From: a virus
Taxonomy: Duplodnaviria > Heunggongvirae > Uroviricota > Caudoviricetes
DNA length: 64,000 nt
IMG/VR virus record: IMGVR_UViG_2939127364_000001
Strand: one strand, 5' to 3'
The notes beneath the pieces are model-generated. The model made no database searches, was not told the DNA's origin, and saw only the letters and a program-made list of their open reading frames with translations. Positions 5,605 to 44,613 of this stretch are shown one piece after another (position 1 is the first letter of the stretch; each line of letters begins with the position of its first letter). The position numbers and the translations under genes were made by a program.

Positions 5605-5913
5605 TTGATGGCCTTCCTACATCACGGCCATCAGGAGGAATACATGTCAGCACTAAAAAAGCAGCGCATCGATTTGAGATTAACCGATGACGATAAAAGC
5701 ATCATCGAGGAAGCTGCCGCAATGTCTAACCAGAGCATTACTCAGTTTATGGTTAGCAGTGCATCTGAACGTGCCGTGAAAGTTATAGAGCAACACCGTA
5801 GACTAGTTCTGAATGAAGAATCCTGGAATCTGGTTATGGACGCTATAAGCAATCCTCCGGCACCGAACGACAAGCTGAAACGAGCTGCTGATCGTCTGAA
5901 AAGCATGGAGTAG
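5605..5913 (+). CDS. DUF1778-type RHH antitoxin (AtaR/TacA-like)
   Basis: About 90-102 aa, ...KKQRIDLRLTDDDKSIIEEAA..., directly upstream of and 8 nt from a GNAT toxin-like gene; true start may be the internal ATG near 5644. Confidence 0.6.
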   Translation: MMAFLHHGHQEEYMSALKKQRIDLRLTDDDKSIIEEAAAMSNQSITQFMVSSASERAVKVIEQHRRLVLNEESWNLVMDAISNPPAPNDKLKRAADRLKSME

Positions 5914-5920
5914 TTTACTC

Positions 5921-6442
5921 GTGAGCAATACAACGATAGAGATTTTCTCTGGAGAGAAAGATTATGATCTAAACGGTTTTGATTGCGGCGAAGAGTCACT
6001 AAACGCCTTTTTAGCCAACCACTTAAAAAGGCAGCATGAGGGAAAAATTCTTCGTGCTTATGTGCTTTGCACTCAAGAAGAAAGGCCAAAAGTGTTAGGA
6101 TATTACACTTTGTCAGGTAGTTGTTTTGAAAAGGAGTCCTTACCTTCAAGAAGCAAACAAAAGAAGGTTCCTTATCGGAATGTTCCAAGTGTTACTTTGG
6201 GTAGGCTGGCTTTGGACAAGTCCCTTCAAGGTCAAGGATTTGGCTCAATGCTTGTAACACATGCAATGCGCGTTGTGTACAATGCATCTCTTGCTGTAGG
6301 CATTCATGGACTTTTCGTTGAGGCGTTAAATGACAAAGCCAAGGCGTTTTATAAAAGTTTAGACTTTATCCAGCTGGTTGGTAACAACGAGCGTTCTTTG
6401 TTCTATCCTACAAAATCTATCGAAAAATTGTTCGAAGAATAA
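5921..6442 (+). CDS. GNAT-family acetyltransferase toxin (AtaT/TacT-like)
   Basis: 173 aa, GTG start; GNAT core LGRLALDKSLQGQGFGSMLV; classic antitoxin-then-toxin arrangement. Confidence 0.65.
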   Translation: MSNTTIEIFSGEKDYDLNGFDCGEESLNAFLANHLKRQHEGKILRAYVLCTQEERPKVLGYYTLSGSCFEKESLPSRSKQKKVPYRNVPSVTLGRLALDKSLQGQGFGSMLVTHAMRVVYNASLAVGIHGLFVEALNDKAKAFYKSLDFIQLVGNNERSLFYPTKSIEKLFEE

Positions 6443-6610: not shown

Positions 6611-6862
6611 TTAATGACGCACCCACTTATCATACAACTCACGATGAACGGCAGAAGCATCTTTCTGACGTATTTTACTGCTCGTCTCATTCACCACTTT
6701 CACTGTGTTTTGAAGTCGTTTTCTGTCTTCCTGTTTTGCCTTCTCTTCCATTGCTCGTCGCGCCGCATTCCCGCCCATCGTGTAAGCGCCGACAAAAACG
6801 AAAAGAACGGCAGCCAGCGTAATCAAAGCAACTTTTAGCTTTGTCATCAGGCTGCCTAGCAT
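6611..6862 (-). CDS. Small membrane protein with N-terminal TM segment and charged coiled-coil tail (spanin/holin-like candidate)
   Basis: 83 aa; hydrophobic LKVALITLAAVLFVFVGAYT followed by KAKQEDRKRLQ. Confidence 0.4.
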   Translation of the reverse strand: MLGSLMTKLKVALITLAAVLFVFVGAYTMGGNAARRAMEEKAKQEDRKRLQNTVKVVNETSSKIRQKDASAVHRELYDKWVRH

Positions 6863-6863
6863 A

Positions 6864-7583
6864 TTAGACCATCCCTTTCTGGTGTCTTCTTACCTGCGAC
6901 CAGGCAATGAATCCGGCCACAACAATAGTGGCAATGCCGAAGATGATGCGTACTGTATCCCCGCTAGAGATATGACCTTGTGCCTTATCCATAGCAGCGG
7001 AAACCTGCGGCATAACATCGGCCAGCTGCGCCAGACCAATACCTGCTGTAACAGTTGCGCCTGCGGTTTCTTTAGTTACAGGAACAGCCTTCACGGTTTT
7101 CACCGGCTTAACAACGCCAGCTCGACGCAGACCTTCCTCAATAACTTCTGCCGCATACCAGGTGTTCAGCGTTTTTAGCGGGCCTCGGCCATTCTCGTGG
7201 CGAATGATTGCCTCAACCAAAGGTCGAAGGATGTCGTAATCATGCAGATCGATGATCATGTCTGCGGTTACACCAACGGCTTTAGACACCTCATTAATGT
7301 AGGCGTCAGTATTGTTTTCATTCGGCGGTGCCCAGCGTTCAATAACTTCACGAATGGTATCGATACTTGTGCCGTCTTTTGCGCGACGTTTATCGTGGTA
7401 GGTAATTAGAGTCACCGCCAGCGCACGAATCCCCCAAACAGGGTCTTTAAACGTGCAAAAGCGCGGTTCGTCTGGATTCGCAACCAGACCTTGCCACGGT
7501 GATCCTTTATCAAGATTACCGGGGTTATTATTACGAATGCCTCTCGGGGTCTTCATCCTTGATCTCCTGTTATTGCAGTCCAC
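6864..7583 (-). CDS. Hypothetical protein with C-terminal TM anchor (possible cell-wall-active or lysis protein; family not recognised)
   Basis: 239 aa; N-terminal RGIRNNNPGNLDKGSPWQG motif, C-terminal hydrophobic IIFGIATIVVAGFIAW; likely true start at internal ATG ~7556. Confidence 0.45.
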   Translation of the reverse strand: MDCNNRRSRMKTPRGIRNNNPGNLDKGSPWQGLVANPDEPRFCTFKDPVWGIRALAVTLITYHDKRRAKDGTSIDTIREVIERWAPPNENNTDAYINEVSKAVGVTADMIIDLHDYDILRPLVEAIIRHENGRGPLKTLNTWYAAEVIEEGLRRAGVVKPVKTVKAVPVTKETAGATVTAGIGLAQLADVMPQVSAAMDKAQGHISSGDTVRIIFGIATIVVAGFIAWSQVRRHQKGMV

Positions 7584-7905
7584 TTTTTACGCCATACGCG
7601 GCTAACCCCAAAAGCAGTGCGGTAATAATGAACGACGTTATTTTAGAAACAATGCCGCCAAAGAACCCACTTGAGATGGAATCTAACCGGTTAAGGAGTT
7701 TGTCCAGATTGGAGTGTTGAATACTATGTTGCGCCGGGGTCATATCACCAAAGTAGGTTTTCAGCTGATCATTGACCTCCTGGCCAATTTCTTCACGTAG
7801 CTCTTTACCTAATTTGCCAACAACCTCCCGAGCAACGATCGCGGCAATACGCTCAACTTGCTCTGTTGTAACGCCCGCCATCTCGTTCGACATGTTTTCC
7901 TCCAT
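7570..7905 (-). CDS. Small protein with C-terminal TM segment (holin-like candidate)
   Basis: 111 aa; C-terminus KITSFIITALLLGLAAYGV. Confidence 0.45.
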   Translation of the reverse strand: MEENMSNEMAGVTTEQVERIAAIVAREVVGKLGKELREEIGQEVNDQLKTYFGDMTPAQHSIQHSNLDKLLNRLDSISSGFFGGIVSKITSFIITALLLGLAAYGVKSGLQ

Positions 7906-7956: not shown

Positions 7957-7976
7957 TAGGTAAGTACTTACACATG
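7957..7976. promoter_or_regulatory. Motif B, perfect palindrome GTAAGTACTTAC
   Basis: ggtaggtaagtacttacaca, overlapping the stop of the Gly-rich protein gene. Confidence 0.35.
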
Positions 7977-8813
7977 AGCGCCGTAAATTGCCCCAGCTTT
8001 AGTCCATGTAGGCGCGTTGCCAGTTACGGCTTTACCAGCTGCCCCGCCGCCGTACATTGTCCCCAATCGTCCAGTAGCAGCAGCACCAGCGGCACCTACA
8101 TTACCTCCACTGCCGCATGTGTATTGAACAGCGGTAGAGCCGATCAAATATTGAGCACCAATCCCGGGAGCGGTTAGAGTGCCAGAAGTTGCCGCACGCG
8201 AAGTTGAAGCTGGCGGCCTTGTAGTGTTTGCAACACCAAACGGGCGACCGCCACCACCCATACCACCATCGGCTGAGTTACCGCCGCCACCACCGCCACC
8301 ACCGGCAATAGCGCCGTTATTGGTTATTCTTAAACGAGTCCCAATCCCGTTGTTAATAGCAGTGCCACCGGCAGCACCGCCACCTTTAACGCCACCATTA
8401 CCGCCACGGCCATAGACAGTTACACCTGCGTTGATTACAAGGCTGATATAAGAGTTGGTAAGTGAACTCGGGAAATCTAAACATGGCACGCCGCTACTGG
8501 ACGACACCAGATCCCCTGTAATGGTAACAACGACTGGCGTCGCCCCCTGGGATTTTAAATAGTTGATCAGTGTGTCTTTGTTGTAGTTATGATTCGCACC
8601 GATGCTGTACTGAACTTCTTTAGATCGCCCGGCCATTTGAGACATTGAACCAGCCGCTGGCAGTTGCACCGCCGTTCGAGCCGCACTCATCCATCTCTGG
8701 CCTGTCACACTGACAGCCGAAGACCCAATCCAACCGGGAACACCGACAATTGGCACATCTAATCTCCTTTTTGATGTGAATATCCTGAATTGGTGAGGGT
8801 GGCCCCTCACCAT
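7968..8813 (-). CDS. Glycine-rich tail-fibre-associated protein
   Basis: Gly-rich runs (GGGGGGGG, GGNGGVKGGGAAGG); immediately downstream of the long tail fibre gene; probable GTG start near 8756 after an AGGAG site. Confidence 0.5.
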   Translation of the reverse strand: MVRGHPHQFRIFTSKRRLDVPIVGVPGWIGSSAVSVTGQRWMSAARTAVQLPAAGSMSQMAGRSKEVQYSIGANHNYNKDTLINYLKSQGATPVVVTITGDLVSSSSGVPCLDFPSSLTNSYISLVINAGVTVYGRGGNGGVKGGGAAGGTAINNGIGTRLRITNNGAIAGGGGGGGGNSADGGMGGGGRPFGVANTTRPPASTSRAATSGTLTAPGIGAQYLIGSTAVQYTCGSGGNVGAAGAAATGRLGTMYGGGAAGKAVTGNAPTWTKAGAIYGAHV

Positions 8814-8822
8814 TCACCTTGA

Positions 8823-11800
8823 TTACATTTTTGCCTTCAGTTCGCGCACTTCCTCGCGCAGCTCTTTGACAGCCTCGACCAACATGCCGATAACGCCGTT
8901 GTAGTTAAGACGCAGACGAGGCTCTCCTGACTGATCGTTATGGTCAACCGTTACCAGTTCAGGCTGAACATTCTGGACGTCCTGAGCGATGAGGCCGCCA
9001 GACTGCTCATAACGGCCACAGACCTGAATCTCGTAGAGAACACCTTCGATCTGCTCCAGCTTGTCGAGCGCCCGCTCAATTTTGCGAATATTGCGCTTAC
9101 TACGGCGGTCGGAACGGATGTAAACGTCGTTAAAGCTACCATTCCCACCACAAACCCAAGTGCCGTCATTTTGCAAATAAGCATTAGCATCAGTGCCATT
9201 ATCAGTACGTGAGTTGTTTATCATGTAAAAGCCGAATTGGCTGTTACCTAAACCACCAACAAAAAATTTCCTATCAGCATGGTCTTGTCTTAACAATGCC
9301 TGAGCAGAACTAGTTGATACCTGATTAAGACCAAAAATAACGTTTTGATCTCGCATGCTAATCCAAGAACCTGAGTTGCTGTTAATAGAAAACCTGTTTG
9401 CATATACCCAGGAATTGGTTTTTATATCTCCAGTAACGTTGACAGGCTTATTGCTTTGAACACTCCCACTCGTAAAGCGTAAAACTTGGGTGTTATTGGC
9501 GTAAACATCAAGAATGCCATCTCCATTTTGTTTTAATCCGGTATCGCTATCACCCAGAACAATTGAGTTCCCACCAAGACCATTGACCACACCCAGCCCA
9601 AGACCACCGTCAACAACAGCACCATTGCCCATTGCTACTCTGCCATTAGTGAGATTTACATAAAATGGACGAAGCGAACCTATATCACCATTTTCTCCCT
9701 GGTCTTTTGCTGTCGGGATAAGGTAAAAATTATTTTCGGAACGGCGAAAAATCATCCCGTATGCCGCATCGTAAATGCGCAACCCATCCGTAGAGCGGAT
9801 CTTAAGCTGTCCGGACATCGTACCGCCGCTGTTTTTCATAAATAGCGCATCAATCCAGCCTGCAAATCCCGACTTATTAATGTATAAATTTCCATCATTT
9901 GCCAGAATGCCTCCACCTTGCGTCTTGAGGGGCTGACTCACATTTTGCAGCGTCAGCACACCAGTCATTGTTCCGCCAGAAATCGGTAACGCACCGACAT
10001 CAGCCGCTGTGGGTTTATGAGCAGTGGTATAGACCTGCGCCCAACCAGACCAATTCGCTGTCGAAGTATCACGGCGTGAACGAACATAAACCGGTGCATG
10101 AGCACCATTCGTTCCGCTCCAGCCAATAAGCAACTCGCCCTCACCAGCAGCACTCGCACCTTTCATGTGCAATACGTTGCCATACGTGGTCGGGTAGCTA
10201 TTGTTGTACGCCTCATACATTTGAATGCCAGCAGTGCCTTGAGTAGAGCCACTTAACGCCGTTACGGGCCCGCGTGATACCAATGTATTAATGTTGATAT
10301 CGCCTGAGCCATCAAACTTAACACCATTGATGTTTCTAGCAGTTTGCAACTTCGTAGCTGTTGAAGCATTACCGTTCAAGCTACCATTGATGCCGCCAGT
10401 AACATTGAGTCCATTACCAATGGACACAGCACCGCTGGTATTATTAATTGTAATCGGTCGCAAACCGTTCCATGAACCTAATGTGTCTCCTGATGCTGTT
10501 AGCATGAAATATGTGTTCGACCCATCATTACGGATAAAGAACCCAAAGCTACCGTAAGCAATGCGGAAACCATTTGCATATTTTGAAATGATCTCGCCAG
10601 AAGATGTCAAACCTCCAGATAATGTCCCACCGGTAAGAGGTAATGCACCAACGTCAGATGCTGTTGGTTTATTTTTCGTGTTATATACTCTTCGCCATCC
10701 TGGAGAATAATCTGTGCCATTAAATACATAGATAAACTCCGCATTAGTGAGAGCACCAGAGACACTCGTCGTTGTGGCCGTTGTTATACGGATCGTATAA
10801 TTGTTTGAGCTACTACCGTTATTAAATACCTCTATAACAGCTCCTGCCAATGGAATAACGCCACAACCAGTTTCACTATTTGGTATGGTTGCACTATTGG
10901 CATAGGCCCACGCACATCGAGCAATCCATGACCTTGTGGTAAACGCGCCGTTATTTTGCAATAACGTCACTAACTGTGCTGTTGTTATTGCTCCGCCATT
11001 ACTTCCTGTAGTTAACCAACCAGTAGGAGATGCCGGGCAACCTATATCGGCAGGCCCCAACGATATATTTCTTGTGCCATCAAACGCAATACCGTTGATG
11101 GTTCTTGCGGTTTGCAACTTCGTAGCAGTAGCCGCGTTGCCCGTTGTATTCTGATTACCAGTCGTATTAACACCTGGCAAATTAATATTCGCAGTACCAT
11201 CAAAGCTCACGCCGCCGATAGTTCTTGCCGTCTGAAGTTTTGTAGCAGTTGCAGCATTACCAGTGGTGTTCTGATTACCCGTAGTATTTACACCTGGAAG
11301 GTTGATATTTGCAGAACCGTCGAAACCAACTCCACCGATAGATCTTGCCGTCTGCAATTTCGTTGCTGTACTTGCATTACCATTTAATGTTCCGGTGATC
11401 CCACCAGTAACAGACAACGGACCTGAAACTGTTCCTCCGGTTGTTGGCAGTGCTCCAATATCTAACGGCGTCGGTTTCTGATGTGTGCTATACATCGTAT
11501 AAACAACACCATCGGTAACGCTGGAAGGCTTACTCGCTGAATATGTTGGCGATGTATAAATAGAAACTGTCGCATTTGCAGTACAATCCCAATGGATATT
11601 TACACGAGTCGCATAATTGCCAATCTCAACGTAAATATCATATGTATCGCCGGATGTGTTGATCCAGGCGAAATTCGTTAATCCGACAGCTGTACGCTTC
11701 CACAAAGCACCTGTAATCCCTTTGGGGTTTCCATTGCCTGCTCGTAGAACCAGTTCTGAAATACCTGCCTGATGTGGGGAGCCAACGTTAAACCCTGCGC

Positions 11801-13469
11801 CACCAATCAGGCTTATGTAAACCACGGAACTGGCTTGTGGCATGGTTACAGTTGCCAGCTTGAACCATCCGGCACCACCACTAAAAGACATTGTTATTGA
11901 ATTTAAAGTACCAATATCTTTCGGCGTTAATGTGATATCCGCAGTCAGTGCTTTACCGTTAACTTTTCGGTTAGATGGTACCCTGCCATTCGCATTGTCA
12001 TTGGCTGCTTTAACTGCCTTCGGTGTCGCGGCAAGCGTTTCAGATGTGCTGTTGGTTGCACTACTGAGCTGGACTATCCCCTTTTTCGTCGTGCTCGCAT
12101 CCTCAAGCGCCACGGCGGATGCAATATCCTCTGCCCGTTTTGCCGCTGTCTCAGCGCGCGTTGCTGCGGATTCTGCCGTACTTTTGCTCTGTGCTGCCGC
12201 CGTCGCACTGCCAGCAGCCTCTGTTGCCTTCGTGGATGCCGTCGTGGCGCTGCCCTTCGCTGCTGACGCCTGTCTGGTCGCCTCATCTTTTGAAGCAGAC
12301 GCAGATGATGCCGATGACGCTGCCGAACTGGCGGACGATGCCGCTGCCGTTTTTGAGGATTCTGCACGGGTTTCCGACGCTTTCGCGTTCGTTTCGGATG
12401 TCTTCGCTGCGGAAGCTGACCTCGCTGCTGCGCTGGCCTGTTCAGTGGCTTGGCCAGCCTTCGTTGTGGCTGTTGAAGCAGACGATGCGGCACTTTCTGC
12501 CGATTTTCCGGCGGCGGTGGCACTGGCTGAGGCCTGCCCGGCACTTGTTGACGCGGCACTGGCAGACGACGCAGCCGCTGTTTTTGAGCCTGCCGCAGCC
12601 GAGGCGCTCTGTCCCGCTGCCGTTTCAGAAGACCTGGCGTTCGTCTCGGACGTTTTTGCCGCCTTCGCGGAATTTCCTGCCGCCGTTGCCGAGGAAGCGG
12701 CATTACTGGCGCTCGAGGCTGCGCTCGTTTCTGATGATTTCGCTGCCTCTTTTGAGGCCGCCGCATCCCGGGCTGAGGTGGCAGCTTCTGACGCCTTCGT
12801 GGTCGCGGTGGATGCAGAAGTGGCTGCAGATTTTTGTGACGCTGCAGCATTCGTTTCAGATTTTTTCGCAGCAGTTGCACTCGCACTTGCGGCACTTTGT
12901 GAGGATGCCGCAGCGGATGCACTTTGAGACGCTTGAGAGGCTTTTTCTCCAGCAGTATTGGCGCTTTCTGCTGCTGCGGCAGCACTGGCCGCCGCCTCAC
13001 GAGCTTTGTCGCCAGCAGCATCAATCGCGTCAGTGTTATTTTTATACCACTCAACGTTTTCGTTGTGCTCGTTGACGATCTGCATTAGCGGCTTAACGGT
13101 CACTTCTGTACCGTCTTCACGCTCGATTGTCACCTCATCCAGCGCAGTCAACCAACTGCGTATGGACTTGGAATCAGCCGACATACGCGACATTAGCGCA
13201 GTAAAGCGCGCGCTAAACTGTGTTAAGTCGCCTTCATAGGTCGTAATGATTCGGCACGGAACCTCAGACTGAGTTTCGCCGGTATAAGGTTCTGAGAGAA
13301 CAATATTCGTATCGCTTATTACGCGCTTGATCTCGTACAGCTTATTGTCGGGGCCAATGACGATCATCCCCGGCAACACACCATTAGCTGTTACGTTCCA
13401 GGCTGTCCCTGCCCCAACCAGAGTATTGCTACCCTGTGTAAATGTGATAGTACCTTCCCTGTACCACAT
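8823..13469 (-). CDS. Long side tail fibre (Stf-like) with Ala/Ser-rich region, repeated fibre motifs and a C-terminal chaperone-like domain
   Basis: 1548 aa; long A/S/T-rich low-complexity segment; NASTATKLQTAR...FDG..NI.L repeated at least 4 times; C-terminal SDRRSKRNIRKIERALDKL resembles self-cleaving intramolecular chaperone domains. Confidence 0.8.
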   Translation of the reverse strand: MWYREGTITFTQGSNTLVGAGTAWNVTANGVLPGMIVIGPDNKLYEIKRVISDTNIVLSEPYTGETQSEVPCRIITTYEGDLTQFSARFTALMSRMSADSKSIRSWLTALDEVTIEREDGTEVTVKPLMQIVNEHNENVEWYKNNTDAIDAAGDKAREAAASAAAAAESANTAGEKASQASQSASAAASSQSAASASATAAKKSETNAAASQKSAATSASTATTKASEAATSARDAAASKEAAKSSETSAASSASNAASSATAAGNSAKAAKTSETNARSSETAAGQSASAAAGSKTAAASSASAASTSAGQASASATAAGKSAESAASSASTATTKAGQATEQASAAARSASAAKTSETNAKASETRAESSKTAAASSASSAASSASSASASKDEATRQASAAKGSATTASTKATEAAGSATAAAQSKSTAESAATRAETAAKRAEDIASAVALEDASTTKKGIVQLSSATNSTSETLAATPKAVKAANDNANGRVPSNRKVNGKALTADITLTPKDIGTLNSITMSFSGGAGWFKLATVTMPQASSVVYISLIGGAGFNVGSPHQAGISELVLRAGNGNPKGITGALWKRTAVGLTNFAWINTSGDTYDIYVEIGNYATRVNIHWDCTANATVSIYTSPTYSASKPSSVTDGVVYTMYSTHQKPTPLDIGALPTTGGTVSGPLSVTGGITGTLNGNASTATKLQTARSIGGVGFDGSANINLPGVNTTGNQNTTGNAATATKLQTARTIGGVSFDGTANINLPGVNTTGNQNTTGNAATATKLQTARTINGIAFDGTRNISLGPADIGCPASPTGWLTTGSNGGAITTAQLVTLLQNNGAFTTRSWIARCAWAYANSATIPNSETGCGVIPLAGAVIEVFNNGSSSNNYTIRITTATTTSVSGALTNAEFIYVFNGTDYSPGWRRVYNTKNKPTASDVGALPLTGGTLSGGLTSSGEIISKYANGFRIAYGSFGFFIRNDGSNTYFMLTASGDTLGSWNGLRPITINNTSGAVSIGNGLNVTGGINGSLNGNASTATKLQTARNINGVKFDGSGDININTLVSRGPVTALSGSTQGTAGIQMYEAYNNSYPTTYGNVLHMKGASAAGEGELLIGWSGTNGAHAPVYVRSRRDTSTANWSGWAQVYTTAHKPTAADVGALPISGGTMTGVLTLQNVSQPLKTQGGGILANDGNLYINKSGFAGWIDALFMKNSGGTMSGQLKIRSTDGLRIYDAAYGMIFRRSENNFYLIPTAKDQGENGDIGSLRPFYVNLTNGRVAMGNGAVVDGGLGLGVVNGLGGNSIVLGDSDTGLKQNGDGILDVYANNTQVLRFTSGSVQSNKPVNVTGDIKTNSWVYANRFSINSNSGSWISMRDQNVIFGLNQVSTSSAQALLRQDHADRKFFVGGLGNSQFGFYMINNSRTDNGTDANAYLQNDGTWVCGGNGSFNDVYIRSDRRSKRNIRKIERALDKLEQIEGVLYEIQVCGRYEQSGGLIAQDVQNVQPELVTVDHNDQSGEPRLRLNYNGVIGMLVEAVKELREEVRELKAKM
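10300..11450. repeat. Intragenic direct repeats (~120 bp units) encoding the tail fibre repeat motif
   Basis: Repeated ...ttgcaacttcgtagc... units near 10321, 11090, 11212 and 11332. Confidence 0.5.
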
Positions 13470-13562: not shown

Positions 13563-16500
13563 TCACAGACGGCCAATTCTTACTCGTAAGACGTTGTTAT
13601 CGTCATAAACGTCAATCCGCTGACCATTTATAACCAATCGCCCATTGCCGCCGCTATTACCGTTGATCTCAAGCGTTCCATTTTTGCCGAACCGCCATCC
13701 AGATCTACCGCTAACAAAATTGGTAGATTGCAGATCGCCTACTTTTGCATTGGTGATTGTGCCATCCTTGATATACGCTCCATTCATATAGGCGATACTG
13801 TTTTCGATAACAAATGGCGTTGTGATCTTCCCGTTAACAGAGTTGACCAAACCAAACCTGTCCGCCTGAACCAAAAACTGAGATAGCCCAGTGGTGTCAA
13901 TACCAAGCGCAATACCGGCAACATACTTCTGACCTCCGCTCGTTGAAGTCTCCATTTTCAACGTCCACGCGGTTGACACTTTTTTGTTGGTATCAGCAAT
14001 AGCTGTTGCCTGCTGTTGAATTGTCGCGGTATTTCCATCCACCTCTGCTTTCAGAGTATCGATTCGCCCACTCAGAGCATTATCTGCCTGCGTTCTCGCT
14101 GTCGTTTCAGTTGTTACCGCCGCGGAAATGTTGGCTGCCGTTTGAGACTCTAAGTTTGTGATTTGAGTCGCCAATGCAGCATCTTGGTCTGTACGCGTTT
14201 TCGTTTCGGTTGCTACAGCCGCTTTAATATCCTCTTTGTATTGAGAGGTCAGCTTGGTGATCTGAGACGACAACGCCGAGTCAGCATCAGTTCGAGCCTG
14301 CGTTTCAACTGCAACGGCCGCACTAATATCTTTCGCTGTCTGTGCTTTTAAATTTGAAACCTCTTTTGTTAAAGCGGTATCACCATCTGCACGAGCCGTT
14401 GTTTCTCTGGCAAGAGACGCCTCGAGATCATTAGCTTTTGCTGTAAGAGACGTAATCTGGGTAGACAATGCACTATCGGCATCAGTCCTTGCTTTTGTCT
14501 CTACAGCAACCGCTGCGGCAATATCAGTTCCGGTTTGTGCTCGCAGGCTGTTAATTTCTCGTGAGAGCGCCTGGTCAGCACTTGCTCTGGCCTCCTGCTC
14601 CTGAGTGATGGCAGCGGATATATCACCGTCAACCTTTGACTGAAGCTGGTTTATTTGTTTGGCTAACGCAGAGTCCCCGCTTGCTCGGGCCTCCTGCTCA
14701 CTACGTATTGCAGCAGAAATATCATCATCAACCTTTGCCTGAAGTTGGGTGATCTGGCTTGCCAGAGCCGAATCTTCCGTTGCTCGGGCTTCTTGCTCTT
14801 CCTTAATAGCTGCGACGATATCGTTGCTTACTTTCGACTCAAGCTGAGTGATCTGTGTCGTCAGAGCTTCATCGGCAGATGTACGAGCCTCCTGCTCTGT
14901 ACTAATCGCCGCGCTGATATCTCCTTCAAACTTAGATTGCAGCTGAGTGACACGCTTTGCCAACGCTTCATCGCCATCGGCACGAGCGGTGGACTCTTCC
15001 AGAATACTGGCCTTAATGTCTTCGCCAATTTCTACGCGAATTTCCTCAACCTTCGTGGCCATTGCAGACATATCATCAGCAAAGGTTTTCTGTGTTGTTG
15101 CGATCTTCGCGTTATTGACCATCTGCTTGTGCTGGTCTTCATCTTGACGAAGAGCCAGGTCAATATTTGTTTTGGCTAACGCCTCAATGTTCGTAGTCAG
15201 TTCTGCACTTGCACGATCGACCTCTGCAACCGTCTTTTTCATTTCTTCAACGGCAGCGGAGCTTTCCTCTACCGTTGACTGCAACACTTCCAGTTGTTTA
15301 GCGTTTGCAGCATCGCCTTCAACACGAGCCTCGCTTTCCTTAGCAATAAGAGCCGCCGCTTCATCTCTTGCAGCCTTTATTGCCTCGACTGTATTAGCGA
15401 GAGCTTTATCGTGTTCAGATACGGTGTTTTCGATTTCAACAATTGCAGCATCAGTAGCATCAATTTTTTCAAACGCTTCATTGACCTTGTCGATCGTTGC
15501 CGAAACCTCACCTTTAAGCTCGGTTTGTGCGTTCTCCAAAGCATCGCTACGCTCGTTGAATTTTATTTCAAAATCCGCGAGGTTATCGCTGAACTGCTTA
15601 TCTAATTCAGCTATATCTTCCTTAACGTCGTTTACCGCCCCCTCCAAAGATTCGACGCTCTGGTTGATATGCTCATTTAACTCGTCAACTGCTTCTTGAG
15701 AGGCTTTGCTGTTGATGTCCTCAAGCAGAGCCTGACCAAGCTCGGAAGATGTAATTTTGCCAGTCAGGAACGACAGTACATCGCGAGTTGTCGCCTCTGT
15801 ACCCAAGTTTGAGTTCGGAGGACTTAACATACCTCGCTTGTTCGATGCTCGAACCCAGTAATACCACGTTTCACTATCCCCAAGACCAGCATGTGTAAAG
15901 GTGGTGCTTGCAGACTCTGCGATCAGTTTCGCCGTATCCAGATTGTTGGTCTGGGATGCGTAAACATTAATGTGATCAAGGTCTACCGAATCTGGATTAA
16001 CCCAATTCAGTATCACATTACGATAGTCTCCAACGGCCGTTAATGACGTTGGTGCATCCGGCGGTGTCATTGTGCCCAGCACCTGATAAACGGTACTGAT
16101 AATTTCTGTTTTTTTACCGTTGAATGAAACCGCATACAGTTGGAAGTCGTAGCGTCCATTCTCCGCGACATTAACAATTTCGTATTGCTCTTCGGTTACA
16201 CGCGCCGATTGCCAGTTCGATATATTGTTTTCATCAGAACGTCGCCAACTGATCCAATACTCTGGAGATTTCCCTTCCCATGTTGCAGTCAGTTTTACTG
16301 ACAGGTTGCCAGGGCTTGAGAGATAAGTCCCTTCGGTGATTTGCAAATTAGACGGCTTGGAGTAAGTCGGGTCCAATACCGTCGTATTCTGCGGGATAAG
16401 CGTTGCACCATTGTCGATCGCCTCATATTTAGACGGATTGTTCTCAACAGCGGTGATGTCAAAGCTACCCGGCGTTTCCCCCTGCGCGATGTTAACGATG

Positions 16501-18296
16501 CGAACGCGCATAGGTTCGAGATCTGGTTCTGTAATTGTCCAGACACCGTTCAAAACAGGCGTTTCCGCTGACGACAGGGCTTTTGAAAACGTAACTTTTG
16601 TTATATTTTCGCCAGTTTCAAGAACATCGCGTTCAACGATTTTGCCTTCCTGATTCAGTATTCGAATAAAGCAGCCGCCTTTGGCTAACGACACAGGCGC
16701 ATCGAGTGTGACGCTGTTTTTGGTAAACGCCACAATTCGACCTGAGTTACGTTTGCCTGCGCGATATTTGTTCTGAATCAGAACGGTTTCACCAGGCATC
16801 AGAAATGACGCGTCTAAGCCAGCAGTAAATGTAATTACATCCGACTCCATTCTGGCGGTATATAAAAGCCACAAACCAACTCGGTGAGCCTGCCCTCGGC
16901 TTGTACAGCCAAATGCTACGACTTCTGTTTTACGCTCACCATAACGGCGCATTGCGTCCTGATCTTCGACGTACTCGATGTTTTGCTTATAACCGTCCTC
17001 CTTGTTGTTGTAGGTTACGAGCGCAACGGATGGGCGATCTTTACGCGCAGAACCTTTATAGGTAAACAATCCATCTTTGACGTTAGAGTTGGTAAACATC
17101 ATTACCGGATCTGATGGGCTATCCTGCATGATGTTGACCATCCCACCAGCCCAAAACACCATGCCGCGGAATGCTCCGGCAATATCCTGAATTAGCCGGT
17201 ATGCGTCCTGTCGACTGGTGATCTGCGTATTGATTGCAAAGCGTTTCTCTTTGCCACCAAAGCCATCATCGACCTCTTCGTCACAATATCGACCAATCTG
17301 GTACAACTGGCCAAGGTCAATCATAGATTCCGACACATACTGACCAAGGCCATATCGAGCATTGGTCAGCAAATCAAAGAGAATCCACGCGGGGTTCGAA
17401 GAAGACAACAGCTTAAAAGTGCCATCCCATACCCCAGCGTAAGTGTTACTGGACTCGTTATAGTTTGAAGGTACTCGAATTTTTAGGCCACGCACCAGAT
17501 AAGAGCGAGATGGCATGGTGCTGCCGAATTGCTCAGAGTTTACCTTCAATCCAACCAAAACAGAGTTTGGATAGTTCATCGGTGTATCGACAATTTCCCC
17601 GATTGAATCCACCCATGTATCGTTATAGAGATACTGGCTACTGTTATCATCGGTAATACGGACCACACGAACCTTGTATGCGCGTCCAGGCTTAGGCAGC
17701 TTCAGCTCGTAGCTACGGTAATAAACGCCGGTCTTCTTTGCTGTTAGCTTAATGCCAACGCTTTTTTCACCTTCCGCGACCACATCTACAAATGTTGAGT
17801 CGCCATTTGCTATCTGGAACTTGTACTCAACAGTCGTACCGTTCGTGTCACCAGTTTTTTTATCTATGCTTCGCAAAGAAGGAAACTTCATGATGACACG
17901 AACCCGATCAGCTTCATCGTTATCGATTGAAACCGTTACATAATGTGTTTTTTTTAACTGGATATTGACGGATTTAGGCGTTTCAACGAAATCAAAGCCA
18001 GACATTGGAGTCTGGTCTTGTGAACCGTCGCGAAAATCCCATGTGATTCCGCTGAAGTTGGAGGAACCGTCTTCATTTACAATCGGCAGATCGTCGATAA
18101 AAATAGATCTTGCGCCATTTACTAAGCCGCCAATTACCCCTTCCCCAAGAAGATCGAGGATAGCGGCCATTGCACGAGAATTTACGGTATCGTCGGCTTC
18201 AACCGGTGTACGGCTGGAGCTTTTGCTGCTTTTTTTACCACCCGCACCGGCAATAAACAGCGGTAGCTTTTTCTTCTTGAACTGTTCCATGTTCAA
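13563..18296 (-). CDS. Tail tip / host-specificity protein (lambda J-like) with a long central coiled-coil repeat region
   Basis: 1577 aa; N-terminus resembles J-family proteins; position immediately after the I-like gene; central ~33-aa repeats. Confidence 0.85.
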   Translation of the reverse strand: MNMEQFKKKKLPLFIAGAGGKKSSKSSSRTPVEADDTVNSRAMAAILDLLGEGVIGGLVNGARSIFIDDLPIVNEDGSSNFSGITWDFRDGSQDQTPMSGFDFVETPKSVNIQLKKTHYVTVSIDNDEADRVRVIMKFPSLRSIDKKTGDTNGTTVEYKFQIANGDSTFVDVVAEGEKSVGIKLTAKKTGVYYRSYELKLPKPGRAYKVRVVRITDDNSSQYLYNDTWVDSIGEIVDTPMNYPNSVLVGLKVNSEQFGSTMPSRSYLVRGLKIRVPSNYNESSNTYAGVWDGTFKLLSSSNPAWILFDLLTNARYGLGQYVSESMIDLGQLYQIGRYCDEEVDDGFGGKEKRFAINTQITSRQDAYRLIQDIAGAFRGMVFWAGGMVNIMQDSPSDPVMMFTNSNVKDGLFTYKGSARKDRPSVALVTYNNKEDGYKQNIEYVEDQDAMRRYGERKTEVVAFGCTSRGQAHRVGLWLLYTARMESDVITFTAGLDASFLMPGETVLIQNKYRAGKRNSGRIVAFTKNSVTLDAPVSLAKGGCFIRILNQEGKIVERDVLETGENITKVTFSKALSSAETPVLNGVWTITEPDLEPMRVRIVNIAQGETPGSFDITAVENNPSKYEAIDNGATLIPQNTTVLDPTYSKPSNLQITEGTYLSSPGNLSVKLTATWEGKSPEYWISWRRSDENNISNWQSARVTEEQYEIVNVAENGRYDFQLYAVSFNGKKTEIISTVYQVLGTMTPPDAPTSLTAVGDYRNVILNWVNPDSVDLDHINVYASQTNNLDTAKLIAESASTTFTHAGLGDSETWYYWVRASNKRGMLSPPNSNLGTEATTRDVLSFLTGKITSSELGQALLEDINSKASQEAVDELNEHINQSVESLEGAVNDVKEDIAELDKQFSDNLADFEIKFNERSDALENAQTELKGEVSATIDKVNEAFEKIDATDAAIVEIENTVSEHDKALANTVEAIKAARDEAAALIAKESEARVEGDAANAKQLEVLQSTVEESSAAVEEMKKTVAEVDRASAELTTNIEALAKTNIDLALRQDEDQHKQMVNNAKIATTQKTFADDMSAMATKVEEIRVEIGEDIKASILEESTARADGDEALAKRVTQLQSKFEGDISAAISTEQEARTSADEALTTQITQLESKVSNDIVAAIKEEQEARATEDSALASQITQLQAKVDDDISAAIRSEQEARASGDSALAKQINQLQSKVDGDISAAITQEQEARASADQALSREINSLRAQTGTDIAAAVAVETKARTDADSALSTQITSLTAKANDLEASLARETTARADGDTALTKEVSNLKAQTAKDISAAVAVETQARTDADSALSSQITKLTSQYKEDIKAAVATETKTRTDQDAALATQITNLESQTAANISAAVTTETTARTQADNALSGRIDTLKAEVDGNTATIQQQATAIADTNKKVSTAWTLKMETSTSGGQKYVAGIALGIDTTGLSQFLVQADRFGLVNSVNGKITTPFVIENSIAYMNGAYIKDGTITNAKVGDLQSTNFVSGRSGWRFGKNGTLEINGNSGGNGRLVINGQRIDVYDDNNVLRVRIGRL
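14000..15010. repeat. Tandem ~99-bp (33-aa) degenerate repeats inside the J-like gene
   Basis: About 10 repeats of ALxxQITxLxxKVxxDIxAAIxxEQEARxxxD in protein; visible DNA periodicity. Confidence 0.6.
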
Positions 18297-39517: not shown

Positions 39518-41077
39518 ATGACTGTTCGGATTGTATCTAACGCAGTTAATGCGCTTATTTCTGGCGCAGATGACAAGGTAAAGCAAATGGTGCAACAGAT
39601 GTTGAGCTACGAAGTCGAGACTGGCGACTGGAAGGGCACAAGCACGATGTTCAACTGGAGTAAAAACTCGTTCCCTGCTGGCTTTGCCAAGCCTGTAGCG
39701 GCGAACTTGAACAAGGCGGGCATCAAATGTGTTCATATCCGCAAAGACAAAGCCCCGGCGCTTGGTAAACCAAATCCGGCGGTTAACCCATTCCCATACA
39801 ATCCTGATTATGCGTATCAGGATCAGACTGTGGAAACACTGGTTCGAGAGGGAATGATGATTGCGCAGATCGCTACTGGTGGCGGGAAATCTAACGTTGC
39901 CTGCAAAGCAGCTGCACGTATCGGTCGAATGACATTATTTTTAACAACCCGCTCTGTTCTGATGTTTCAAATGGCCGAAAACTTCCAGAGATCCATCGAC
40001 TACCGCGCCGAAAATGGCGAACCGTGGTTAAAAGACCAAAAGGTTGGAGTCATTGGCTCTGGTGAGTTCCAGGTATCACGACATATCAACGTCGCTACAG
40101 TTCAAACTCTGGCAAGTTTCCTTGAAGAACCACCACGCGATGCAACTCCAGATAAGAAGAGCTACCACCTCAAACGTCGGGACTTGGTGAAACGCTTCCT
40201 TTCAAGTGTGTCTCTGCTTATTCTGGAAGAGGCGCATGAGTCTTCAGGTTCTAATTTCTATGACATTGCCAGATTATGTGTGAACGCAGACTATCGTCTG
40301 GCACTTACGGCCACGCCGTTCATGAAGGATTCTACAGAAGCCAACATGCGTCTGATGGCTGTGGCTGGGCGAATTGAAATCAAAGTCACAGAAAAGTACC
40401 TGATTGATCGAGGCATTCTGGCAAAACCGTACTTCCTTTATCATAAAGTTGCCTACAAGCCAGACGAGGTCAGAATAAAGGCGGAACTTGCCAACAAACA
40501 CCTCAATTTTAGAGTAGGTATGAGCACAGCCTACCAAAAGGCTTATCAGTTGGGCATCGTGTATAATTTGGGACGTAATGAGGCCATTGTTCGCGAAGCA
40601 TTGCTCTATAAGCAACATTCTCTCAATTGTATGACTCTGGTTCGTCTTAAACGCCACGGGAAAATCCTGATGGAAATGATGAAAGAGTCCGGCCTTAGAG
40701 TTGACTTCATTTATGGGGAATCGAACCAGTCGACAAGGCAAGCAAAGCTGAACAGTTTAGCGTCTGGTGAAATAGATGTTTTAATAGGCTCGACTATTCT
40801 GGATGTTGGTGTTGATGTGCCAAGCGTTGGTGCGGTCATTCTTGCTGGTGGTGGGAAAGCAGAAGTTGAAATGAGACAGCGTGTCGGTCGTGGCTTACGA
40901 GCCAAGAAGAATCAGGCAAACGTGTGTTTTATCACTGATTTCATTGACATTAGCAACAAATACCTGTTGTCTCACTCTTATGAGCGAAAACACATCATCG
41001 ACACCACACCTGGCTTTGCAGAAGGTGTATTGCCTATTGATGGCGCATTCGATTTTGGAGTTCTGAAACGAGATTAG
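39518..41077 (+). CDS. Superfamily 2 DEAD/DEAH-like helicase
   Basis: 519 aa; motif I ATGGGKSNV, motif II LILEEAHE, motif III TATP, motif VI QRVGRGLR. Confidence 0.75.
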   Translation: MTVRIVSNAVNALISGADDKVKQMVQQMLSYEVETGDWKGTSTMFNWSKNSFPAGFAKPVAANLNKAGIKCVHIRKDKAPALGKPNPAVNPFPYNPDYAYQDQTVETLVREGMMIAQIATGGGKSNVACKAAARIGRMTLFLTTRSVLMFQMAENFQRSIDYRAENGEPWLKDQKVGVIGSGEFQVSRHINVATVQTLASFLEEPPRDATPDKKSYHLKRRDLVKRFLSSVSLLILEEAHESSGSNFYDIARLCVNADYRLALTATPFMKDSTEANMRLMAVAGRIEIKVTEKYLIDRGILAKPYFLYHKVAYKPDEVRIKAELANKHLNFRVGMSTAYQKAYQLGIVYNLGRNEAIVREALLYKQHSLNCMTLVRLKRHGKILMEMMKESGLRVDFIYGESNQSTRQAKLNSLASGEIDVLIGSTILDVGVDVPSVGAVILAGGGKAEVEMRQRVGRGLRAKKNQANVCFITDFIDISNKYLLSHSYERKHIIDTTPGFAEGVLPIDGAFDFGVLKRD

Positions 41078-41079
41078 TT

Positions 41080-41358
41080 ATGAGCGAAAAGAAAACAACT
41101 TATTGCCAAGTGGCATTGTCTGATAAGGCCAATGAAAAACTTGGAAAATTTCAAATAAAACTCAAAGAGAAAAAAATCAAGATGTCTAAGGCTGAAGTTA
41201 TCAATGCCATTCTGGAGACGATGACTATGGCTGAATTTGACAAAGTCACATCTGCTGTTGGGGTTTCCGCTAAGACGCGTGAGAAAATCATGCGCATCTA
41301 TGAAAACTCCAATATGACAAAAAAAGATTTAGAGGAAATACTGAGCAGGTTGCCGTAA
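41080..41358 (+). CDS. Small hypothetical protein
   Basis: 92 aa, starts 3 nt after the helicase stop. Confidence 0.45.
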   Translation: MSEKKTTYCQVALSDKANEKLGKFQIKLKEKKIKMSKAEVINAILETMTMAEFDKVTSAVGVSAKTREKIMRIYENSNMTKKDLEEILSRLP

Positions 41359-41423
41359 CATTTCATATTTACCCCCTATCTACTAATTCTATGATGTGCT
41401 CACTTGTTAGAAAGGAGCACATC

Positions 41424-41990
41424 ATGAGTTGGTTAAAAGAATTATCATTTGTTGACACCACTGGCGCTAAGAAAAATCATTCTTTCTGGAAAGTCAGCGA
41501 TCCTTCTGATTTTCTTGTTGGTGCTAATGCTGCTTTTGAATTGCTTAACTTTTATCAACGTTATCCAGAAATGAAACACAGTCCACTCCTGTACAGAATA
41601 ACAAACGATATGAATAGGTCTGGTTTATTATCAAGTGAGTCAGCGAAAGGCTTTTTTAGCAAAATTACGCCTCACATATCATTCGATGCAACAAACGAAA
41701 TTGATTATCTATCCACGAAATCTCAAGAACAATTATCTGTACCACCTGAGAAAAAAGAAAGACGAATTGCCAGCATTGAAAATATATCGAAAGAGCTTCG
41801 CACAACAACGTTGAGGCTGCTGAACTTTCTTACGCTGCTTAATTGGATAGATGATCAAACATTGATTCCATCAACAGATGCGTTGGATAACAGAGTCCTT
41901 AGGCTGAACAAAAAATCGCAATTTGGTTTTGTGTTCACCAAAAAAGGTGAAGATTTAATCAAAAGAAAATATAGATTATTGAATGATTAA
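41424..41990 (+). CDS. Hypothetical protein (AT-rich moron gene 1)
   Basis: Track ORF 41391..41990; ATG at 41424 follows GAAAGGAG; low GC; a 9-bp inverted repeat gatgtgctc/gagcacatc spans the SD. Confidence 0.5.
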   Translation: MSWLKELSFVDTTGAKKNHSFWKVSDPSDFLVGANAAFELLNFYQRYPEMKHSPLLYRITNDMNRSGLLSSESAKGFFSKITPHISFDATNEIDYLSTKSQEQLSVPPEKKERRIASIENISKELRTTTLRLLNFLTLLNWIDDQTLIPSTDALDNRVLRLNKKSQFGFVFTKKGEDLIKRKYRLLND

Positions 41991-42130
41991 TAGTCTACAT
42001 GCAGGTGTATGAGAGCACCTGCATGTGACATTCGTCACGTTTTTTGAAACATATACCTCCGGCTGAAAAAAGATCTTGATTGGCTGAACGATATTTGTAG
42101 GCTTACCTATGTTTAGAACCGGAGGCATGA

Positions 42131-42679
42131 ATGGGTCACTTACCTTTTGATAAGAGATTTTTAAGTGCAAAGGAAATAAAGGACTGTGTGGATTTTTATC
42201 ATAAAAAAAATAAACAGAAATCTTGCTTAGAAAACCCTAGACACCTAACTTCTTCTCAAAAAGAAGAGCACAAACTAATACAATACAGGTTAAAGACTTC
42301 ACGTAAAGATCGTTATGAACACTATATATACGTGAAAGATATTGAAGGCACCAGGACAAATTGCGGAGTAGTCTTTTATCCTTTTGATATAACAAAAATG
42401 TTCGCTATTATGGACTCCTGTGATGGCGTGGCCCCTGGAAAATTGGAGTTGCATTCAAATTTATACACTTATCCCAGTGCTCGGAAATGGATAAGAGATA
42501 GCACGTCACCCTATGGTTTTTCTTTTCTTTTCAAAAATCATCTGGCATTAAAAAATTTTATCGAAAAATACAACAACTGCATATCATCAGGTGAATTAAG
42601 TTTCGACAAAGTCTGTAAAAACATAAAAAGATATGACCTCTTAAAAGATATTTACAACAGAACTCAGAAGAGCATGTAG
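42131..42679 (+). CDS. Hypothetical protein (AT-rich moron gene 2)
   Basis: 182 aa; low GC; no recognisable motif. Confidence 0.5.
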   Translation: MGHLPFDKRFLSAKEIKDCVDFYHKKNKQKSCLENPRHLTSSQKEEHKLIQYRLKTSRKDRYEHYIYVKDIEGTRTNCGVVFYPFDITKMFAIMDSCDGVAPGKLELHSNLYTYPSARKWIRDSTSPYGFSFLFKNHLALKNFIEKYNNCISSGELSFDKVCKNIKRYDLLKDIYNRTQKSM

Positions 42680-42706
42680 CCACTCACTAATCATAGTCAA
42701 TCAAAT

Positions 42707-43126
42707 ATGAAAGCAAAAAACTTAATGATTCTAATGCTAACCACGTCACTAATTGGGTGTTCGTCTTCGTCTATATCTATTTCAAAGGCAAAGGATGCAC
42801 CTCAAAGCAGAATATTTAAATATCAAACACCACATGAGTCTAGTCTAACAATAGTTCGAGACAAAGGGCTGGTTGGTTCTGCATGTAACGCTTCCATTTT
42901 CATCAATGGAGAAACGGCTGCAAAGCTAGAACCTGGTGAAAAAGCAACTTTCTACCTTAACGAAGGAGAGTGGATCGTTGGGACATCAATTGAAAGTTCA
43001 GGTCTTTGCGCATTTAACCCCTCCAGGATGGAACGAGAAATAAAGCTAAAGCAGGGCGACTCGAAAACATATCGGGTTTTCACTACCTGGGATGGTACAA
43101 TGGACATATTGCCAACCACTTTATAA
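42707..43126 (+). CDS. Lipoprotein (superinfection-exclusion candidate)
   Basis: 139 aa; signal peptide with lipobox LTTSLIGCSSS. Confidence 0.6.
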   Translation: MKAKNLMILMLTTSLIGCSSSSISISKAKDAPQSRIFKYQTPHESSLTIVRDKGLVGSACNASIFINGETAAKLEPGEKATFYLNEGEWIVGTSIESSGLCAFNPSRMEREIKLKQGDSKTYRVFTTWDGTMDILPTTL

Positions 43127-43130
43127 TGAT

Positions 43131-43652
43131 ATGACGACGAAAGACATCACCTACGGCATACCGGCTGAAGTCTGGCCGCGAGACTACGAACATGCAGAGC
43201 GCACCTTGCTCTTCTGGCGGAGTGCAAAATTTCCTGTAAGAGTCACTCTCGAAGACGGCCAAGTGTTTTGCATGTATGTCTACGGGCTATTGAGCGCAAG
43301 AAATAAGCTGAACCTCACACCAGATCCGCTTAGCAACACAAATCGTATAAGGCTCCCTCTTGAGCGCATTAGCACAATTGAGTCGGGCATAGAAGAGGTT
43401 GACACTTCATTCACAGGTCGACTAACGCTAAACAATGAACAGATGGTTAATCAGCCATCACGTCGTGACTTTTTTAAGATATGTCGTCAGGCTTACCAAA
43501 ACGGCAAATCTATAAGGGTCTACATGGCAGACGGTCGCGAAATTGAGGGAACGTCAGATGGCGTTGACGCCTGTCTAGTCACACTTAAGTTGGAAGACGG
43601 TAGAAAAATACTTATTTTCTTCGATTGGGTTGAACGAATCCTTCCGTTTTAA
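43131..43652 (+). CDS. Hypothetical protein
   Basis: Track ORF 43092..43652; start set at ATG 43131, just after the lipoprotein stop. Confidence 0.4.
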   Translation: MTTKDITYGIPAEVWPRDYEHAERTLLFWRSAKFPVRVTLEDGQVFCMYVYGLLSARNKLNLTPDPLSNTNRIRLPLERISTIESGIEEVDTSFTGRLTLNNEQMVNQPSRRDFFKICRQAYQNGKSIRVYMADGREIEGTSDGVDACLVTLKLEDGRKILIFFDWVERILPF

Positions 43653-43665
43653 TTTCTATAAGGGT

Positions 43666-43696
43666 AATAACCGGCTAAGTCCGGTTATTATTTTAC
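43666..43696 (+). terminator. Rho-independent terminator
   Basis: aataaccgg-ctaagt-ccggttatt followed by attttac. Confidence 0.55.
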
Positions 43697-44600: not shown

Positions 44601-44613
44601 TTAATGGAATCTT

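Follow-up and report, generated by a model that had tools for sequence, protein, structure and literature searches.

The tail-fibre locus at positions 7968-13469 of a 64,000-nucleotide stretch of DNA from a tailed virus of the class Caudoviricetes (IMG/VR record IMGVR_UViG_2939127364_000001; the whole stretch is called the window here) very probably encodes a receptor-recognition module, consisting of a mosaic, homotrimeric fibre that would remove its own C-terminal Peptidase_S74 domain and carry a gp38-type adhesin at its tip, and whose specificity would evolve by the swapping of parts. Its genes lie on what we identify as an SSU5-like siphoviral phage-plasmid of Escherichia coli. A preliminary description had called this a composite tail-fibre locus, and the open reading frames (ORFs), the Ala/Ser/Thr-rich stretch, the four repeats and the SDRRSKRNIRK segment on which it relied are all present where it had placed them. 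The features of the locus, each with its basis, are as follows.

8823-13469, minus strand: tail fibre gene, 1548 residues plus stop codon, a mosaic side or long tail fibre (uninterrupted ORF; PHROG tail-fibre families; Pfam Gp34_trimer and Peptidase_S74)
13020-13469, minus strand: fibre N-terminal domain, residues 1-150, presumed tail-tip anchor (conserved in SSU5, Cyrano and all plasmid relatives)
12069-13019, minus strand: Ala/Ser/Thr-rich tract, residues 151-467, best read as a heptad coiled-coil rod (composition, periodicity, predicted helix, constant length)
9585-12068, minus strand: modular shaft, residues 468-1295 (Stf-like SSATNSTSETLAATPKAVK motif, T4 gp34-like trimerisation domains, KPTxxDVGALP linkers)
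11034-11387, minus strand: three tandem 40-residue repeats, GNA[S/A]TATKLQTAR..FDG..NI, residues 695-812 (motif search, Tandem Repeats Finder)
10275-10379, minus strand: fourth, isolated repeat copy, residues 1031-1065 (motif search)
9114-9584, minus strand: distal tip, residues 1296-1452, with a GDSDTGLKQNGDG motif and a Mu-S/P1-S-like domain, ending in ..NDVYIR (alignments to PDB 5yvq, Mu S, and 6f45_A, S16 gp37)
8826-9113, minus strand: Peptidase_S74 intramolecular chaperone domain, residues 1453-1548 (Pfam PF13884; alignment to 6f45_A)
8764-8769, minus strand: Shine-Dalgarno sequence AAGGAG, with a 7-nucleotide spacer to the GTG start of gp38 (read from the sequence)
7968-8756, minus strand: gp38-type receptor-recognising adhesin, 262 residues (Pfam GP38 and Gp38_N, PDB 6F45_D, structural model and Foldseek)
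8622-8756, minus strand: gp38 N-terminal attachment domain, residues 1-45 (Pfam Gp38_N; a phage-plasmid-specific variant)
7971-8396, minus strand: gp38 polyglycine-sandwich region, residues 121-262, with five variable loops between invariant Gly motifs, the 'type A' set (conservation profile, plasmid alignment)

Judged by family profiles, solved structures and a structural model, the glycine-rich protein encoded downstream of the fibre is a T2/S16-type gp38 receptor-recognising adhesin. It matches Pfam GP38 at profile positions 1-217 of 218 (E = 8.4e-70, 235 bits) as well as Gp38_N (E = 1.2e-14, 54.5 bits), and its sequence matches in the PDB are the gp38 proteins of phages S16 (6F45_D, E = 4e-43) and PP01 (9v85, E = 1e-32). 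The AlphaFold2 (AF2) model, built on 42 homologues, reached a predicted local distance difference test (pLDDT) score of 91.2 and a predicted template modelling (pTM) score of 0.84, and a Foldseek search of the PDB with this model returned 6f45_D (E = 1.4e-19, TM 0.77/0.81) and 9v85 (E = 4e-18) at overall TM scores of 0.77-0.85, with no significant match beyond these two. Homologues occur in 757 phage records and 148 protein clusters, and RefSeq already names such genes 'receptor-recognizing protein'. The preliminary description was thus right that the protein is real, but it lacked the adhesin role, which would make this protein, by homology, the determinant of host range. It had also named two outcomes that would speak against it, a fibre with no S74-type domain and a glycine-rich frame without homologues, and we found neither.

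Read from its first ATG, the glycine-rich ORF (7968-8813, minus strand) encodes 281 residues, is 21.8% Gly and contains runs of eight, four and twice three Gly. The start is most likely the GTG at 8756, which gives 262 residues, follows the Shine-Dalgarno sequence listed above and agrees both with the N-termini of homologues, M(P/A)IVGVPGW, and with the RefSeq starts in relatives; the ATG at 8813 is probably not used. With this start, the adhesin gene lies directly downstream of the chaperone-ended fibre, 66 nucleotides from its stop codon (8823-8825).

The attachment domain of gp38 is 91% identical among phage-plasmids and 58-67% identical to that of T-even phages. Two of the three Trp 'prongs' known from docking, W9 and W22, are present; at the third position (PFW in S16, PGW in T2) the protein has Ser36 (AGSM, window 8649-8651), and all phage-plasmid copies have Ser or Asn there. 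Since RB49-like phages have a Tyr at this position and CC31 is without all three Trp, the three-Trp feature is not universal in the gp38 family, and the position of Ser36 probably co-varies with the fibre tip.

The C-terminal end of the fibre matches Pfam PF13884 at residues 1453-1507 of 1548 (E = 5e-11; 43.2 bits, where the cutoff is 22), and the match begins at SDRRSKRNIRK (residues 1453-1463), the segment from which the preliminary description had proposed a self-cleaving chaperone of S74 type. Catalysis in this family, as established in endosialidase and T5 pb1, requires a Ser at the cleavage site and a Lys five residues on (S-x4-K). When the last 113 fibre residues are aligned to the C-terminus of S16 gp37 (6f45_A, E = 1.1e-12), SDRRSK falls over SDRRIK, so that S1453-D-R-R-S-K1458 coincides column for column with S-D-R-R-I-K of S16. 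There, the last 113 residues are an intramolecular chaperone that cleaves itself off at DLNVS^SDRRIKK and thereby exposes the docking surface for gp38, and T2-like phages have the junction DVYIR^SDGRLKI at the cleavage site (PMC7917993). Because the fibre sequence ..NDVYIR^SDRRSK matches both the S16 and the T2-like sites, self-cleavage is predicted between R1452 and S1453; this would free 96 residues and make ..NDVYIR the C-terminus on which gp38 docks. The same DVYIR^SD junction is found in gp37 of Bas45 and in two prophage fibres.

By homology to S16 and T2, the S74 domain would nucleate folding of the fibre trimer and would then remove itself, after ..NDVYIR1452, by Ser1453/Lys1458 autoproteolysis. 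The exposed fibre end would be capped by a single 262-residue gp38 through its N-terminal helical domain, and the host receptor bound by the five variable loops on the polyglycine-II sandwich of gp38 would be an outer-membrane protein or lipopolysaccharide (LPS). In such a homotrimer, a lineage-specific anchor would be followed by a rod shared with Stf fibres, beta-structured modules at the repeats and linkers, a tip related to Mu/P1 S and T2 gp37, and the S74 chaperone. Specificity could evolve along three routes: swapping of the gp38 loop cassette, swapping of the whole tip, and shuffling of shaft modules at conserved repeats.

The first of these routes is visible in the variation of gp38. 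Among 42 aligned gp38 sequences, Gly accounts for 28 of the 45 invariant columns. Conservation falls to 0-20% in five segments, at residues ~123-131, 160-167, 175-191, 197-214 and 224-234. Variation among the gp38 proteins of nine plasmids is limited to five segments between invariant Gly-rich motifs and resolves into two allele sets: type A, found in the window, MB53, EP91B and NT1F31, and type B, found in CPF6, CMS-2020a, LCP22S3, NT1F34 and AMPD1. The fibre of CPF6 is 97% identical to that of the window and yet its gp38 is of type B; therefore, the adhesin cassette reassorts independently of the fibre. A large protein database holds many gp38 clusters whose 97-100% identity is confined to the N-terminal ~55%, which is the same cassette pattern.

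The closest loop sets outside this lineage belong to T-even phages. Type A, as in the window, is 81% identical to gp38 of Karamvirus CC31 in the loop half, compared to 58% in the attachment domain (residues 1-45), and type B, as in CPF6, is 94% identical to gp38 of Tequatrovirus Bas45 in the loop half, compared to 64% in the attachment domain. Bas45 depends on OmpA (PMC8594841), and loop identity leads us to predict that the type B allele uses OmpA as well. At the DNA level, the loop cassettes of phage-plasmids and T-even phages are 70-82% identical and differ in G+C content (54% vs 44-48%), and the loop exchanges would therefore be old rather than recent.

The remainder of the fibre is a mosaic. 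Its N-terminal domain (residues 1-150) is specific to the SSU5-like lineage, lies outside the DNA segment common with lambdoid Stf genes and presumably anchors the fibre to the tail tip. The tract that follows, which the preliminary description had treated as low-complexity sequence, is ordered in our reading. Throughout residues 151-450, Ala, Ser and Thr make up 70-78% of every 50-residue block, compared to 8-40% elsewhere in the fibre; the Ala and the Ser/Thr positions autocorrelate at lags of 7, 14, 21, 28 and 35 (r = 0.3-0.43), and Fourier analysis gives a peak at 3.5 residues; and AF2 predicts helix for residues 139-460, in a single-sequence model of residues 1-520 whose N-terminal domain is poor (pLDDT 31-63) and which we used for the secondary structure of the rod only. 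The tract (residues 151-467) is identical in length in all relatives examined, and we therefore reject a disordered stretch of variable length. Its most plausible structure is a trimeric heptad coiled coil, a rod whose ~317 residues would span ~45-50 nm, or ~47 nm at 0.15 nm per residue.

Rod DNA (window 11992-12945) is also widely shared: many lambdoid phages, PhiR30_1 and mEp460 among them, have Stf genes that are ~92% identical to it. Part of the query is matched in 4169 of 5426 complete E. coli genomes, probably because the rod DNA is common to lambdoid Stf genes. Recombination between phage-plasmids and chromosomal prophages could use such DNA as a bridge.

Distal to the rod, the Stf-like SSATNSTSETLAATPKAVK motif, the TKLQTAR repeats, T4 gp34-like domains and a Mu S-like domain of ~100 residues follow one another. 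Pfam Gp34_trimer matches two stretches of the shaft (E = 1.2e-30), and the PDB matches of the shaft are T4 gp34-like domains (4uxe, 5nxf) and Mu S. There are four copies of the motif [AS]T[AS]TKLQTAR, three at residues 700, 740 and 780, in tandem with a period of 40 residues, and one at residue 1036; four near-identical 13-residue motifs in one fibre are far beyond chance. The underlying DNA forms an array at 11097-11382 (period 120, 2.4 copies, Tandem Repeats Finder score 306).

Among relatives that have the TKLQTAR repeats their number ranges from 3 to 5, and SSU5 has none, which is the comparison of repeat number that the preliminary description had suggested. Homology to the window fibre breaks or resumes at residues ~495, 762, 798, 1037, 1061, 1146, 1296 and 1388. 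Half of these eight breakpoints (~762, ~798, 1037 and 1061) fall inside TKLQTAR units (~10% of the protein), but the enrichment is only suggestive because the breakpoints are ends of BLAST high-scoring segment pairs, which run into any conserved repeat. The others lie at conserved linkers, namely KPTAADVGALP, GDSDTGLKQNGDG and the Mu-S-like core. The pattern is suggestive, and only suggestive, of shaft modules shuffled at conserved joints. Whole tips vary too: STEC409-type plasmids have a different S74-ended tip and no gp38, and carry genes for an 84-residue protein, a 188-residue protein and Cor, and the fibre of Cyrano is without chaperone or adhesin. Hence only part of the earlier proposal that recombination at the repeats switches host range is retained: shaft breakpoints do coincide with repeats and linkers, but receptor specificity is more plausibly altered by swaps of gp38 loop cassettes or whole tips than by a change in repeat number.

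Ala/Ser-coding DNA also explains several long frames that compete with the fibre and that the preliminary description had correctly dismissed as spurious.

11842-13075, either strand: span of the three spurious ORFs, wholly within Ala/Ser-coding DNA
11842-12927, plus strand: spurious ORF of 361 residues, out of frame or antisense to the fibre
12074-13054, minus strand: spurious ORF of 326 residues, out of frame to the fibre
12119-13075, plus strand: spurious ORF of 318 residues, out of frame or antisense to the fibre

The antisense ORF at 11842-12927 of the window has a counterpart with 98% identity in the RefSeq annotation of relatives, a 684-bp plus-strand 'hypothetical protein' (WP_060588921.1 and similar), and in several related plasmids the RefSeq/PGAP fibre gene is split or truncated, with part of it marked as a pseudogene. 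The loci of relatives with such a misannotated fibre or antisense ORF, equivalent to window 11842-12927 on the plus strand, are L001 4917-9287, L007 6060-6743, L011 6355-7038 and L012 6331-7014. Re-translation of nine plasmid and phage loci gave one intact, co-linear fibre frame in each, MWYR...KAKM, of 1548-1718 residues, and the fibre 'pseudogenes' of relatives are annotation artefacts of Ala/Ser DNA. Such routine automated breakage of the fibre gene, together with the antisense artefact, could bias pangenomes and calls of 'defective' phages.

Set beside known systems, the locus is closest in design to the S16/T2-type tip (PDB 6F45), where a fibre with an S74 chaperone and an SD(R/x)RxK motif is likewise followed by a gp38 with an N-terminal attachment helix bundle, a beta-helix and a polyglycine-II sandwich with alternating hypervariable loops. 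The carriers differ, a temperate siphoviral phage-plasmid with a GpJ-type tip here and contractile-tailed Straboviridae there, as do the fibres, with a single 1548-residue protein in place of the gp34-37 chain and a Mu-S-like stretch before the cleavage site; the Ser at the third docking Trp of gp38 is a further difference.

Within its own family, the locus shares synteny with SSU5, whose fibre SSU5_021 has its 'tail fiber adhesin' gene SSU5_022 directly downstream and whose tip and S74 domain are 87% identical over the last ~250 residues. Unlike the window, SSU5 has genes for the 84-residue protein, the 188-residue protein and Cor, and its fibre is without TKLQTAR repeats. SSU5_022 (locus L003, 5765-6301; 178 residues) has in common with gp38 only a Gp38_N domain of ~45 residues (58% identity over residues 8-45); it has no Gly-rich sandwich and its body is unrelated beyond residue ~45. 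The common Gp38_N domain therefore suggests that one docking adaptor carries at least two receptor-binding bodies on the same tip.

Chromosomal siphoviral prophages of E. coli and Enterobacter kobei (loci L014, 3763-8777, and L016, 4714-8810) encode the same pairing, a fibre with Gp34_trimer and Peptidase_S74 followed by a protein with Gp38_N and GP38, and have the same NDVYIR^SD.RLK junction. Their fibres are shorter (1095-1179 residues) and without the Ala/Ser rod, and the cassette lies not after J but between head genes (with an S78 protease-capsid fusion) and tail genes. This placement is unusual for a fibre module.

Two other fibre types share parts of the protein. Lambdoid Stf fibres resemble it in their rod DNA, in the SSATNSTSETLAATPKAVK motif and in their position downstream of J, but they have a separate Tfa chaperone, a receptor-binding domain within the fibre, no S74 domain, no gp38 and another N-terminal anchor; here, the downstream gene is of the GP38 family, and the Pfam and PHROG output contains no Tfa family. 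In the Mu/P1/P7 type, in which fibre S is paired with U (5yvq), residues 340-440 of Mu S align with fibre residues 1357-1452 (E = 3e-35), and the variable parts of P1/P7 S are 37-45% identical to the fibre; where the receptor-binding end of Mu S begins (FDSRYVRDVR), however, the fibre runs into its S74 chaperone. The list of ORFs around the fibre contains no inverted S'/U' genes, no U gene and no recombinase or invertase. An invertible fibre of Mu/P1 type is ruled out, as only the domain of ~100 residues is common.

How well the proposed module stands depends on what else the locus could be. The glycine-rich frame might be a chance ORF in GC-rich, low-complexity DNA, and its Gly content and the short DNA repeats at 8280-8304 and 8378-8407 would fit, but the homologues, the full-length Pfam and PDB matches and the confident model refute this, leaving it with practically no probability. 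It is very improbable that the downstream protein is an assembly chaperone only, like T4 gp38 or lambda Tfa, which would stay out of the virion and leave receptor binding to the fibre tip. Genes at the equivalent position in lambdoid, Mu and P1 phages do encode Tfa-type chaperones, and T2-type gp38 still appears in some database entries as 'distal long tail fiber assembly catalyst'; yet the protein matches the Pfam GP38/Gp38_N adhesin family and no Tfa family, it has the fold of the S16 and PP01 gp38 proteins that sit on the fibre tip in solved complexes, the fibre has an intramolecular chaperone of its own, and the downstream protein varies mainly in its surface loops, as a receptor-binding protein should. 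We give little more credence to a decaying, non-functional remnant, in which fibre and/or adhesin would not be expressed or assembled and the element would persist only as a plasmid. The fibres that RefSeq shows as split, truncated or pseudogenised in several relatives would favour it, as would the view that many phage-plasmids are defective, but the fibre frame is intact in all nine plasmids examined, gp38 is intact with its Shine-Dalgarno sequence and start codon, the head, tail and lysis modules are complete, and the same layout is found in SSU5 and Cyrano, both of them infective phages that have been isolated.

A more serious alternative, although still an unlikely one, keeps the architecture and gives type A gp38 LPS as its receptor, core or O-antigen, in place of an outer-membrane protein. 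SSU5 is described as specific for core LPS, but as its adhesin has only the attachment domain in common with gp38, its specificity says nothing here. The closest T-even loop set is that of Karamvirus CC31, and the long-tail-fibre adhesin of the related Karamvirus Pet-CM3-4 has been tied to LPS core or O-antigen; most characterised gp38 adhesins, by contrast, bind porins (Tsx, OmpA, OmpC, OmpF, FadL, OmpW), and the sister allele in related plasmids is the one so close in its loop region to OmpA-dependent Bas45.

Several points weigh against the self-cleaving, gp38-tipped fibre that we favour. Autocleavage, incorporation of gp38 into the virion and receptor binding are all deduced from homology. 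With a Ser in place of the third docking Trp, the docking geometry of gp38 may differ from that of S16, and the fibre sequence just before the cleavage site is closer to Mu S than to S16 gp37. The bias of the breakpoints towards conserved repeats weakens the case for shuffled shaft modules. As for the receptor, none was found in one open-access literature collection for CC31, the nearest T-even loop set, and a related Karamvirus adhesin has been linked to LPS and not to a porin.

The wider context agrees with the assignment of the element. The preliminary description had spoken of a prophage; by its matches and gene order, the element is instead an SSU5-like siphoviral phage-plasmid that is not integrated, because the nearest DNA matches of the window are circular E. 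coli plasmids of 105-120 kb and its gene order is that of SSU5 and Cyrano. The top match, plasmid pCPF6-IncFIB (116 kb), has a coverage of 96% and an identity of 95.4%, and the phages CMS-2020a, Cyrano and SSU5 are also among the matches, so that both the gene order and the circular plasmid or phage relatives of ~100-120 kb place the window in this group. The order common to SSU5 and Cyrano is J-like tip, fibre, adhesin, holin, endolysin, spanin, toxin-antitoxin and ParA. Tape measure, major tail protein, portal and large terminase are encoded in the window as well, and its head, tail and lysis modules are all complete. The immediate neighbours of the locus are the following.

13563-18296, minus strand: GpJ-like central tail tip protein, 1577 residues, upstream neighbour (Pfam Phage_Tail_Tip, Phage-tail_3, FNIII-A_GpJ)
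6611-7905, minus strand: lysis cassette, downstream neighbour (PHROG matches; order and annotation as in SSU5 and Cyrano)
7570-7905, minus strand: holin-like gene (PHROG)
6864-7583, minus strand: endolysin-like gene (PHROG)
6611-6862, minus strand: Rz-like spanin gene (PHROG)

Within the GpJ-like protein, a long series of ~37-residue repeats (for example ..ITQLQSKV.GDISAAI..EQEARASADSAL..) extends over residues ~830-1400, between the fn3 region and the C-terminal Phage_Tail_Tip domain, and resembles another coiled-coil insertion. A Pfam search of the holin-, endolysin- and spanin-like proteins gave no match, and their names come from PHROGs; the endolysin-like protein (239 residues) matches PHROG 873 and has a hydrophobic C-terminal segment, and its homologues are named 'membrane protein' by RefSeq. 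Between the lysis cassette and ParA, an ORF for a TacA-like antitoxin (5605-5913, plus strand) is followed by one for a GNAT acetyltransferase toxin of TacT/KacT type (5921-6442, plus strand), and the same pair is annotated in relatives. After a helicase gene (39518-41077), the G+C content of positions 41000-48000 is markedly lower than in the structural region (36-44% vs ~47-50%), and this block is probably accessory or plasmid-side cargo. A scan for promoters and terminators returned no more sites than in shuffled sequence, and no convincing terminator 3' of gp38.

Both protein families and their mechanism are well known, and the locus is largely ordinary; what is mildly new is the phage-plasmid lineage context and the loop cassettes common with virulent T-even phages, and nothing else. 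The papers that we found treat gp38 adhesins as a feature of Straboviridae, and a search of one open-access literature collection found no paper on gp38 in SSU5-like elements or phage-plasmids. As far as we have seen, the fibre-gp38 arrangement of temperate siphoviruses has been annotated but apparently not discussed.

The range of bacteria open to the phage-plasmid is probably set by this locus. Elements of the SSU5-like group are common in livestock and human E. coli, and members carry resistance genes (PMC9600943), so that host range affects the spread of these genes. We tentatively suggest, at somewhat less than even odds, that temperate elements, both SSU5-like phage-plasmids and chromosomal siphoviral prophages, draw together with virulent T-even phages on one pool of gp38 loop cassettes, grafted onto lineage-specific N-terminal adaptors that match their own tips. 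If so, a resident phage-plasmid could give a receptor specificity to, or get one from, a superinfecting T-even phage, and gp38 adhesins would be a general currency of enterobacterial phages rather than a trait of Straboviridae. The adhesins are widespread in temperate siphoviruses, and receptor-prediction models trained on the gp38 loops of T-even phages might carry over to these elements.

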